Shown in pieces: positions 1 through 56,263 of a DNA stretch of 64,000 bases. Origin of the DNA: Octopus vulgaris (lineage: Eukaryota). How positions within the stretch are numbered: position 1 is the stretch's first letter; each line of letters begins with the position of its first letter. A program made the position numbers and the translations under genes. The notes beneath the pieces were generated by a model that did no database searches, was not told where the DNA came from, and saw only the letters and a list, made by a program, of their open reading frames with translations. The stretch is from positions 111,786,001-111,850,000 of the forward strand of contig OX597819.1 of NCBI GenBank assembly GCA_951406725.2, given 5' to 3'.

Positions 1-654
1 TACCATTAATCAGCAGATGAAACGGTATATCGTATAAGAAATTACAGGGTAAATGTTTTTTAAATTTTCTCCTGGTTTACGGAATTAATTTTTATTTGCG
101 GTTGAAGCTTTGGCTGTTATTTCTAGTGGGTGAATGGCCTATTATGGCCGTTCCTTGATTGTTGATGTTGAACTTAAAAATGGTCTATGACTATTTAATT
201 TTTTCCCACTAGGCCGCTGGTGGCAAAAGAATTCTACAAAATTTTTTTTGCCACCCTATATTGATTTATTATGAATTTTCTGGTTAATTCCGTAATGGAA
301 TCGACGGCTTATATTTATTTGCTGCTGATAAATTTGGCGCGAGTGCGACGATTTGAAAATTTTAGGTCAGATATAACCTTGGCAAGGTCGGAAATGCCTC
401 GTGAAAATATCTGTTCCGACTTGGGCTATTTCTTACTGAAGAATCTGAGGGCCTTTGGAAGATTGGCTTGATTTAATTTAATCAGGTTAGTTTACCATTA
501 ATCAGCAGATGAAACGGTATATCGTATAAGAAATTACAGGGTAAATGTTTTTTAAATTTTCTCCTGGTTTACGGAATTAATTTTTATTTGCGGTTGAAGC
601 TTTGGCTGTTATTTCTAGTGGGTGAATGGCCTATTATGGCCGTTCCTTGATTGT

Positions 655-658
<4 letters not shown>
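1..658 (+). mobile_element. Tandem 492-nt non-coding monomer with hammerhead (retrozyme / Penelope pLTR-like)
   Basis: 1-166 is repeated exactly at 493-658 (period 492). The unit contains a hammerhead, ends in (TA)n and is truncated by the window start. Confidence 0.8.
428..534 (+). ncRNA. Type I hammerhead ribozyme, intact core
   Basis: ATTTCTTA-CTGAAGA-ATCTG[long hairpin]CAGAT-GAAA-CGGTATATCG-TA-TAAGAAAT. Helix I is 8 bp; predicted cleavage after GUA at 526. Confidence 0.85.
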
Positions 659-16498: not shown

Positions 16499-18479
16499 AC
16501 GGGTTTCGACACAGTTTGCGTTTACCAAATTTACTTTCAAACCATTCGTCGACTCTCGTAGAAGCCACTTGCCCAATCTACCGCGCAGTCTTAACTCAGA
16601 AGGCCTTGTCATTTTCTTCAAGACCTGCTGACTTGGATTCCATTGAAAAGTGCTTAAACCTCAACGGAAAGCAAATATATATATATATATATATATATAT
16701 ACAAGATTATCAGTAAAGAAAACATAACACAGCATGTAAATTAATAAATTCTCTTTATGTAAACTTATTTAATGAAGTTATTGTAAAGAAATTTTCGGCT
16801 TGAAAAAAAAAAAAAAGAAGACAATCACGGAATTAGCAAAATAGCATATTGAGTACAACCGGAAGGTCATAGTTTCAATTCTCGTTAATAATATACACTA
16901 TGCATGAGAAGTAGTGTTTTGATCGTATTGAAGTCAATCTTACTGCTGGTTCCAACACATTTTTTTTATTGTTATATGGCGCCTGTATCTGTGAGATTAA
17001 CGAGTCAGAACTTATGGAGATCTAACTCAAGAAACAAAACCGCGTTCTTCCGGTTGATGATACATATATACGCACATACACATACACTCACAAACGTACG
17101 CATACATACATACATACATACATACATACATACATACATACATACATACATACATACATACATACATACATTGTGTATGTGTGCAACTGTTTATATAAGT
17201 ATATATATGTTTATGTGTATGTCTATATATATATACATGCACACAAAATGTCACACAAATATATATATATACACACACACACCTACGCATCTACATATAT
17301 GTATGTACATATATAATATAATTTACACATAAATAAATGCCTATATATATATTATATATATATGTGATGCTTTTGCAGCTTTATATATGAGTATATATAT
17401 ACATAAACACACGCACACACACACACACGTATATATATAGAGAGAGCATACTAATATATGCATACAAATGTCTATATATGTACATACATATACATATATG
17501 CACATGCATGCATGCACACATACATACATAAAGGCACACATACATACATACATACATACATACATACATACATACATACATACATACATACATACATACA
17601 TACATACATACATGCACGCATGTGTGTCTGCACATTGAACTTCCCGATAATTATTGTATAATTGTTATTTTATAAATGCATTCAGTTCTCCCTTAGTCTG
17701 TTCCCTTGGGGGTATTTTTTACGAAGTCGTACCAAATATACTAAGGATGTGTGTGTGTGTGTAGAGGGGTATTTGGAGATGTATGTGAGTGGAGTAGAAT
17801 ATCAATATGTGTGTGTATAGAAAAACATAGAGGGGAAGATTATTTAGTATCTGATATCCCATTTTATATTACAACTGCTAGTTTCCCCATTGCAGGGTTC
17901 TTCAGGCATTGTAAGGTAGAATCCACTATTCCACCTGCTAATTAAGACAAGAATAGAAGCAACTAGCTGTTTTCATAAAGAGGTATTTTTAATCGGGATG
18001 CACGCGGTTTATTGGCTGTTGCATCAATGCGTTCTTTGTGTCTATAAATATGTACTGCTTAACCAATGCCGGTTAAACAGTACGCTCGTTTTTAAGAGTT
18101 TAATGTGTTTGTGCGTGTGTGTGCGCGCATGTGTATGTAGATTTTATTTACTGGAACGTGTGTTTGTGATTGCATATGTGAAAGTGTATATCTATTGGAG
18201 GTCTTAGTGATTGTGTATGTATCTTGCATGTCTGTTAGAAATCTTGCATGTTGTGCTTTTGTGTCACTGGAAAGGCTTGTCAACCCAACCAAAAACCGAA
18301 TAAGGATAATCGTCAGAAATATCGATAAAAACTAACAACAATGCCCATGAAGTTTCTATATTTGTACATTAAGACAACAGTGCATCGGTTATGTGAAAGA
18401 TTACTCATATCACTTACAAACAACATTACACATTCAACCAAACATCAACTGCCTGGGAAATCTGTTACCACTGTCACAT

Positions 18480-48086: not shown

Positions 48087-50169
48087 TCTGTAAAAATCTG
48101 AAATAAATCAACAAATGAACGAGAAATGAAGACAATGAGGTTAAAGGTATTCTAGTCAATACAACTGACACCCATTGCACGTGGCTATTACGCACAAAAT
48201 AAATTGTTTATATAATATAGGAGAGATACGTAGGCAGAAGGGGGTGAGCGTGTGAGACAAACAAAACTGGGTAGAATGAACTTTGGTTACAAACTAAATA
48301 AAATGAAACAAAAACGAGCCCTGTGAAATCAACGGATACTATATTAGTCACAGCTGGCAGAATCGCTCGCACGCCGGACAAAAATCCTTAGCAACATTTC
48401 CTCCGGCTTGACGTTCTGTGTTTACATGACCCCGAAGTCGACTTTACTTTTCATCTTTTGGAGATTAATAATATAAAATACCTATTTCTTTACTACCCAC
48501 AAGGGGCTAAACACAGAGAGGACAAACAAGGACAGACACACCGATTAAGTCGATTATATCAACCCCCAGTACGTAGCTGGTACTTATTTAATCGACCCCG
48601 AAAGGATGAAAGGCAAAGTCGACCGACCACGGCGGAATTTGAACTCAGAACTTAACGGCAGACGAAATACGGCTACGCATTTCGCCCGGCGTGCTAACGA
48701 TTCTGCCAGCTCGCCGCCTTAATAATATAAAATACCAGCTGAACACTGGGGTCGATATTGTCGACTTGACTATTTCCTTTAAAATTTTTGACCTTTCGCC
48801 AAATTTGAAACTGTTATTATATATGATTATTATCCATAAAATATATTGTTTAAATGATACATGCACTAACAGAAATAGAAGCAAATGATCAGCCGGGTCA
48901 AACAAAACGAAACGAAATTTTGAATACAGCGAAACAAAAGAAAGCAAAAAAATGATTTTCATTAAAGAACTAAAACGAAACAAACTAAAAATAGATCCTA
49001 CACTGTTTAAATGCAAATCATTTATGTTTATGGATAAATCAATCGGCAACAAAGATATAGACGCCTGAGTCAGGATCTATAATGTATTTTACAGCGCAAA
49101 TTTAAATTAAGCAAAAATAACGTGATTCAGATGCGGTATCCTTCCCCAAAAAATGTAAACGCCATACAGAAAGGCGCGTATCTCACTTCCAACATTCAAA
49201 ATAAAAACAAGATTAAAAGAGAATGTTGAAATTAATGAACTATCATATTGAAATATTCCATGCGCATTGCATTGCACATGAGCACTAAAATAGAAAGGTA
49301 TGAGCTATGGAGAAGAAATAAAAAAGGCGATGAAAATGTGACTTCGAACAGACAGGCAAATGTGCAACGATTGATAATAAATGATGACAAGAAGCCTTAT
49401 CTTGAAATAGAATAACACCATAGTGAAAATGTGCGATAAAATTAAAACAGAAGCTACTCTATATAAATAAGACGACATCTCAAACTGATGACAGTTTTAT
49501 AACAGAAACTATCACATACAAAATACCGAGGCCAATACTCTTTTACTCTCTCTTTTACTCTTTTACTTGTTTCAGTCATTTGACAGTGGCCATGCTGGAG
49601 CACCGCCTTTAGTCGAGCATATCGACCCCAGGACTTGAGAGAGTTCAAGCCTAGTACTTATTTTATCGGGATATTTTGCAGAATCGCTAAGTTACGGGGA
49701 CGTAAATACACCAGCATCGCTTGTCAAGTGATGTTGGGGGACAAACACGGACACACAAACATATACACACACATACATATATATACATACATACATATAT
49801 ACATACATACATATATACAGCGGGCTTCTTTCAGTTTCCGTCTACCAAATCCACCCACAAGGCTTTGGTCCGCCCGAGGCTACAGTAGAATACACTTGCC
49901 CAAGGTGCCACGCAGTGGGACTGAATCCGGAGCCATGTGGTTGGTAAGCAAGCTACTAACCACACAGCCACTCCCACGCCTATACCAATAACACACAACC
50001 TTACCACACAGCCACTCCTACACCAATACCAACAAAACTCAACAAAAAGGGAATTATCCGAACTGAAAGTCAGCAATAATTCTAAAAGTTTCTAAAAGCA
50101 GAAAAGACAGTCTGATTTAGCAGCACAGGATCAGTGACTGGACATAAATAATAATAGGAAAATAAAATA

Positions 50170-56040: not shown

Positions 56041-56263
56041 AAACATCGTCTCCAGCTGCCTGAGGAACAGAAATAACCCAGAAACTGCGGTCCACAGATA
56101 TTGCTTTGTGCTGAGTGGAGATGCTAAACTCTCCTGTTCGAAAATATAAGGACACATTGTATCGTATAGTCAGCTGGGGACGATGTTTCCTGGAGCTAAA
56201 TAACAGTAACATTTGTCTCAACCGGGACTGTCACATTATCTTGGCAAATAATCTTTATCCATC

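Follow-up and report, generated by a model that had tools for sequence, protein, structure and literature searches.

Metazoan non-LTR retrozymes have been described with units of 170-400 nt, and Penelope-like elements (PLEs) or LINEs were proposed as their mobiliser (Cervera and de la Pena, 2020; PMC7229834). Animal retrozymes were also presented as non-autonomous PLE derivatives (Li, Clavereau and Pollet, 2026; bioRxiv 10.64898/2026.07.22.740005). As for the PLEs, the protein of the Anolis element PAc was reported to nick and extend both strands in vitro, starting at two internal RNA sites which bound a 'tail'; ribozyme cleavage was dispensable in this system, which used mainly uncut RNA as its substrate (Frangieh et al., 2024; PMC11167929). 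A PLE tail is likewise described in Craig et al. (2021; PMC8557442) and Arkhipova et al. (2013; PMC3846280).

The locus analysed here belongs to a young family of non-coding hammerhead repeats in Octopus vulgaris, which is present in many copies and has a unit of 492 nt. It is an animal non-LTR retrozyme and thus of an already known kind. Like the retrozymes described in PMC7229834, it consists of tandem non-coding repeats with a single type I hammerhead in each unit, is low in GC, has a structured monomer and a short helix III, and occurs alongside PLEs. It differs from them in the 492-nt unit, the long helix II extension and an A-U pair at 10.1-11.1, and it is known here from DNA alone; fixed ends and inverted arms, both present in octopus, are not given in the text of PMC7229834 available to us. 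With the retrozymes of Li et al. (2026; bioRxiv 10.64898/2026.07.22.740005) it shares the class, a probable dependence on PLEs and a size within their range of 51-972 bp. The evidence in the accessible part of that preprint is co-occurrence and pLTR homology, whereas here it is an insertion footprint, and no homology to the sampled PLEs was found. Among the openly available main texts searched, none was found that describes, for a retrozyme, two fixed end sites, counts of their pairing or run-off at the cut site. The present analysis adds footprint evidence (fixed ends, pairing and cut-site stops), the PLE dependence of retrozymes having already been proposed in the accessible texts of PMC7229834 and bioRxiv 10.64898/2026.07.22.740005.

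The window is a stretch of 64,000 nt (contig OX597819.1, positions 111,786,001 to 111,850,000), and the element lies at its left edge. Unit positions q1-q492 correspond to window positions 35-526 (q = window position minus 34). The features are as follows.

About 65 nt upstream of the window: 5' half of hammerhead copy A, intact
1-42, plus strand: 3' part of hammerhead copy A (GAAA at 19-22, helix III, GTA at 32-34, 3' strand of helix I at 35-42)
35-526, plus strand: 492-nt unit between two predicted cleavage sites
35-64, plus strand: q1-30, zone of preferred first-pass 5' ends in sister insertions
166, plus strand: q132, short fixed 3' end, the presumed start site of reverse transcription, read through in this unit
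167-272, plus strand: q133-238, 106-nt 'tail' between both fixed ends
272, plus strand: q238, long fixed 3' end of the family
428-534, plus strand: complete type I hammerhead copy B, predicted cut after 526
527-658, plus strand: partial last unit, q1-132, terminating at the short fixed end
657-693, no strand assigned: (TA)n microsatellite that served as target, with AT shared between it and the element end

The original prediction, made from the letters of the window, proposed an exact repeat of period 492 with GTA triplets ending at 34 and 526; this is borne out, as positions 1-166 are identical to 493-658. It had further advised looking upstream for the 5' half of the first ribozyme, and there an intact CTGAAGA core and all helices are present. 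They belong to one more unit of 491 nt, beyond which 25 nt of a third unit follow, so that the element totals 2.3 units (1140 nt) in a single arm with a short end. No credible open reading frame had been expected, and indeed the longest stop-to-stop frame wholly within the element is 68 aa, leaving no coding capacity. Exact identity is limited to the 166-nt overlap; 4 positions distinguish the upstream unit from 35-526. Both full units carry a variant at q233 which recurs in just 1 other of the 92 loci covering that position. The idea of a recent insertion holds for the subfamily, the nearest copies among 40 scored candidates being 99.6% identical. The argument once given for it, the identity of the repeats, is weakened, since the copying mechanism would itself be expected to yield identical units and the units differ at 4 sites.

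Several other features were observed around the element. A strong 120-nt hairpin (z -8.9; L001:812-940) lies outside the window, in the stretch from about 45 to 170 nt before the 5' end of the element, and the left flank of the insertion is not (TA)n, in contrast to most family ends. Immediately 3' of the TA tract, positions 694-830 hold an abundant short repeat which is deep in all sequencing runs compared and which is probably an octopus tRNA-derived SINE. Near-perfect inverted repeats at 7476-7752/8202-8478 (97%) and 25859-26103/26181-26425 (98%) may be other head-to-head insertions of the PLE type. A loose pattern of the hammerhead core alone matched three times (17881-17905, 49485-49509 and 56060-56085; 0.63 expected). 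The repeat search over the whole window was dominated by microsatellites.

The second ribozyme, predicted to be complete with an 8-bp helix I, can be read directly at 428-534. In this copy helix I pairs 428-435 with 527-534 (8 bp), the core consists of CTGAAGA (436-442) and GAAA (511-514), and helix II pairs 443-447 with 506-510 (5 bp, first pair A-U) and carries a long hairpin extension at 456-497. Helix III (515-517/522-524) has 3 bp and a TATA loop, and the GTA ends at 526. The motif thus has the type I constitution: a CUGANGA core, GAAA, an NUH triplet and three conserved helices. Rfam gave 0 hits in the window at the gathering threshold; at E<=5, 11 hits were returned for L001:900-2200, with no hammerhead family among them. 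The long helix II extension is likely behind this absence of a match.

Conservation was assessed in 289 hammerhead spans from 98 loci, of which 288 could be parsed. The CTGA-N-GA core is retained in 286 of these 288, and changes are limited to tolerated positions; every base occurs at N7 (A 176, T 58, C 28, G 24). The cleavage triplet is GTA in 243 copies, GTC in 44 and ATA in 1. In 52 aligned spans 99.0% of cells are paired, compared with 30-46% in slid controls. One helix II pair alternates between G-C (26) and A-U (23), which represents few independent events among related copies. A G10.1-C11.1 closing pair is typical of canonical hammerheads, although not obligatory. In this family it is G-C in 0 of the 288 parsed copies, A-U in most and G-U in 23, while G-C at 10.1-11.1 is said in PMC4209133 to be highly conserved. 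The helix III loop is mainly TATA or TGCA, both palindromic; palindromic loops of this helix are given in the same paper as a feature of dimer-forming metazoan motifs (PMC4209133). The unit as a whole is structured, with a folding z of -5.8 as a linear and -4.2 as a circular molecule. However, the local minimum free energy fold is without helices I and III, and predicted folds favour helix II. In the circular fold the probability is at most 0.27 for helix I and at most 0.09 for helix III, and the active fold lies at +3.6 kcal/mol. Conservation and modelling together suggest that the hammerhead is a selected ribozyme, but probably a slow or dimer-dependent one.

A search of the 2.8 Gb genome with the unit gave at least 226 matches, from 40 of 1127 candidates scored. 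They lie on many contigs, so the duplication is not a local assembly artefact, a danger to which the original prediction had itself drawn attention. Exact patterns of the two ends running into TA were found at 241 places for q132 and at 676 for q238, with 0 for the reversed-pattern controls. The family therefore comprises at least 676 insertions; the q132 count is too low, since the exact pattern misses subfamilies which differ there. For closer study 145 loci were examined, namely the 100 first-listed q238 places (the anchored set) and 45 others chosen for their long matches or a q132 end. They are about 85-100% identical to the window unit, with a few pieces at 73-84%. The defining traits of animal non-LTR retrozymes are present: tandem repeats, a type I hammerhead in each unit, two consecutive complete motifs at the present locus and an absence of coding sequence. 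The retrozyme identity first proposed is thus upheld by tandem non-coding units, a nearly invariant core and a structured unit. Relatives at 73-76% identity (L170, L204, L121 and L203), in two cases beside younger copies, form older layers of the family. Individual loci depart from the common form: a mirror-symmetric complex array (L215:394-5223), short internal repeats of q392-140 (L116:913-2340) and an array in which q137 and the long end have been brought together by a deletion (L107:1457-2071).

In the anchored set, 81 of 100 insertions are two-armed with the arms head-to-head, 17 are single-armed and 2 are of another form. The arms terminate at two fixed 3' ends spaced 106 nt apart, the long end at q238 and the short end at q132 (short-end class, q105-143). 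The 81 two-armed anchored insertions comprise 76 with one long and one short end, 0 with two long ends and 5 with a long end and another end. Two arms are present in 37 of the 45 other loci; a long and a short end are combined in 31 of these and, as exceptions, two long ends in 1 and two short ends in 2, of which one is an internal deletion, while 3 have another or a cut-off end. A TA flank was counted in 211 of 218 cases, a figure which is partly built in because the anchored set was selected by a TA-containing pattern. At 110 arm-arm junctions the arms overlap by at least 1 nt in 59, are blunt in 5 and are separated by extra bases in 46. The filler between short arms at q1-30 junctions often consists of repeated blocks of T and A (L103, L146, L165, L173 and L177), which are like templated end-joining insertions. 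Judged by eye only, the sequences before the two retrozyme ends resemble each other and also the ends of the PLE.

Head-to-head inverted arms, a one-sided tail and an AT-rich target are the marks of PLE-mediated insertion. Features shared with PAc and other PLEs, as far as these are described in PMC11167929, PMC8557442 and PMC3846280, are a pair of fixed 3' ends, targets that are AT-rich or (TA)n, head-to-head arms and a tail on one side only. The retrozyme differs in being a non-coding passenger, in its spacing of 106 nt rather than 30-40, and in a strict pairing of one long with one short end, counted here. Moreover, it has a surplus of 5' ends at the ribozyme site, in contrast to PAc, for which the RNA-seq reported in the available text of PMC11167929 had no ends at the cut site.

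A candidate enzyme is encoded in the same genome. A search for GIY-YIG domains gave at least 148 matches, from 150 of 6136 candidates scored, and 16 of the retrieved loci contain an intact 781-aa ORF. It combines RVT_1 (below the Pfam cut-off) with GIY-YIG and bears a CxxCxxC-type linker, which is given as a mark of the Neptune/Nematis group (PMC8557442). By these sequence features the intact PLE is of Neptune type. Copies of this PLE family run into (TA)n from either of two end points spaced by 36 nt; where both ends of an inverted locus could be seen (3 of 3), one was of each type. An intact, active-looking, endonuclease-bearing PLE family sharing both target and end rule with the retrozyme is thus present in the genome. 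Its end rule matches the two-site initiation and two-strand nicking of PAc, and the retrozyme follows that rule with a spacing of 106 nt. The PLE loci concerned (L071-L086, e.g. L072:2168-6535) are young, have a 36-nt tail and, upstream, an open region which can reach about 480 codons, and contain a minimal hammerhead-like motif with a U3-A8 core variant, a variant described in PMC4209133.

No sequence link between retrozyme and PLE was found among 50 GIY-YIG/PLE loci, except for one 57-nt match, a small retrozyme piece inserted within the TA flank of an older PLE (L043). Nor does a PLE ORF abut an array in any of the 145 loci; fragments occur in 6, the nearest 443 nt away. The partner PLE is therefore a candidate, deduced from the footprint only. 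These results also bear on the suggestion that the unit is nothing but the terminal repeat (pLTR) of an unsampled autonomous PLE, the arrays being truncation stubs. The footprint is of PLE type, Xenopus retrozymes resemble pLTRs in the accessible text of bioRxiv 10.64898/2026.07.22.740005, and the examined sample covers 145 of at least 676 loci, all of which would suit it. The direct unit-to-unit junctions (exact in 316 of 318) do not, and neither does the lack of an abutting ORF in 145 loci and of DNA similarity to the 50 PLE loci beyond the 57-nt piece, which makes this suggestion very improbable. Within this sample the element does not qualify as an autonomous PLE or its pLTR, as no joined RT and GIY-YIG ORF was found in the 145 retrozyme loci and no pLTR homology in the 50 PLE loci.

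The positions at which the arms stop give evidence on the templates. The 5' ends of the arms were refined against a trimer reference; 5 arms whose 3' end falls in neither class were excluded, as were complex insertions (4 in the anchored set). After refinement 33 of 166 arms stop in q1-30, the unrefined figure of 43 of 166 being inflated by short read-through stubs called q1. On the first pass q30 is reached by 131 arms, of which 29 stop in q1-30, where stop rates elsewhere in the unit would predict 5.2% (p 3e-11), whereas on later passes 4 of 64 do so against 5.4% expected (p 0.46); the difference between passes has a Fisher p of 0.0045. It is seen in the long arms (14/66 first-pass, 3/38 later-pass) and in the short arms (15/65 and 1/26) alike. 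When the biased loci are pooled in (236 arms), the figures are 35 of 192 for the first pass and 12 of 146 for later passes, the latter against 4.2% expected (p 0.02), a mild surplus which counts against stopping on the first pass only. The best 30-nt window of the whole unit begins at q1, the predicted cut, and the counts run from 4 (q483-492) through 10, 13 and 10 (q1-30) to 3 (q31-40). The stops range over q1-27, mostly q15-27 in long arms and q1-15 in short arms, so long arms end about 10 nt farther from the cut. This surplus of insertion 5' ends just 3' of the predicted cut upholds, indirectly, the release of 35-526 as a monomer.

The pattern fits a mix of RNA with a 5' end at the cut and RNA without one. 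Partly cut linear multimers and end-to-end template jumps are disfavoured, as they would give equal stop rates on each pass. It is also conceivable that the stops mark something other than a cut. Transcription might begin near q1; or, on a template that is only circular, copying might stall during the first pass where the RNA is folded or bound by protein, and later passes would then read an RNA:DNA hybrid and meet no structure. This would accommodate the spread of stops over q1-27, with long arms at q15-27 and short arms at q1-15, rather than at q1 alone, and the q1-30 region is A/T-rich with a small predicted hairpin. However, the best 30-nt window starts exactly at q1, the counts step up there and down after q30, and stronger predicted helices elsewhere in the unit have no such peak. 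We regard this account as improbable, and it leaves the reading of two-site priming by a PLE intact.

The two arms of an insertion are coupled. In 72 insertions, stops in q1-30 occur in both arms in 10, in one arm in 7 and in neither in 55 (p 3e-7), and the cut is read through in both arms in 37, in neither in 19 and in one in 16 (p 6e-6). Partner arms differ by 0.37%, as against a median of 4.6% to other insertions. In 64 insertions the closest sequence is the partner arm in 25, a tie in 29 and, counting against this coupling, another locus in 10; private variants common to both arms number 12, in 11 of the 64, and 47 lie on one arm only. This suggests that both arms of an insertion were copied from one RNA template. 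The arrays are also homogeneous: 39 of 40 have at most 8 internal differences, against a median of 24 between loci, the unit junction is exact in all but 2 of 318 cases, and in 4 of 19 arrays every unit carries variants private to that insertion. With a median arm length of 321 nt, arms of at least 1.5 kb still make up 13 of 125 in the young identity class and 6 of 94 in the older one. Since long arms are kept across identity classes despite this median, a lengthening step is needed. Rolling-circle copying is the simplest, with local tandem expansion and uncut multimers as alternatives.

The last of these belongs to an account in which the same retrozyme and PLE operate with no circles, the templates being fully cut monomers and uncut linear multimers transcribed from existing arrays. 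Such a mix of cut and uncut RNA would likewise produce stops on the first pass only. Slow cleavage is predicted from the weak 10.1-11.1 pair and the short helix III, uncut RNA was the main substrate of the lizard PLE in vitro (PMC11167929), and long source arrays exist. Against this, copying from linear RNA, with arms of 321 nt at the median, could make arrays shorter but never longer, and long arms persist in young and older classes. Private variants which are array-wide in 4 of 19 arrays and common to both arms in 11 of 64 insertions also speak against it, although unsampled source arrays could explain them. On balance this account is unlikely, less so than the pLTR and stall alternatives. 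No run recorded as RNA contains the stretch. Contigs from 6 runs guessed, not recorded, to be RNA and from one large unlabelled run cover the unit; they were not counted as expression, and such contigs cannot separate a circle from tandem read-through, nor show ends or strand. A loose end in one contig had no match in the genome.

The retrozyme was thus probably inserted through a borrowed Neptune-type PLE, with two-site priming and with cut monomers and circles as templates. In this cycle tandem transcripts would self-cleave after GUH to give 492-nt monomers, some of which may be ligated into circles. Both strands of a (TA)n tract would be nicked by the PLE reverse transcriptase-endonuclease, and cDNA synthesis would start at q132 and q238, two fixed positions inside a single RNA. 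If this RNA is a cut linear monomer, the two cDNAs would run off near q1 and leave short mirror-image stubs; if it is a circle, they would run round it with strand displacement, and each arm could become a homogeneous array of as many as about 9 units. The 5' ends of the two cDNAs would then be joined through microhomology or filler bases. The copy in the window would have retained its short-end arm only.

The element itself is of an ordinary kind, and the footprint evidence makes the proposed cycle testable. It offers a compact test system: a template of 492 nt on which both start sites are predicted, a (TA)n target and, in the same genome, an intact candidate for the enzyme. If the cycle is as proposed, a PLE which copies small circular RNA from defined internal sites would be of interest for RNA-templated gene insertion. 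The family counts bear on three open points, namely how retrozymes re-enter genomes, what role the hammerhead has in vivo and how the inverted structures of PLEs come about. Tentatively, and at somewhat less than even confidence, the octopus genome may be a fossil record of the full retrozyme cycle, in which a PLE dimer starts on a single small RNA at two sites 106 nt apart, one for each target strand, with cut monomers leaving mirror-image stubs that end at the cut and ligated circles leaving rolling-circle arrays. If true, this would constitute genomic evidence for hammerhead cutting in the germ line, for circles as a template of retrotransposition, and for PLE inversions which arise from obligatory twin priming.
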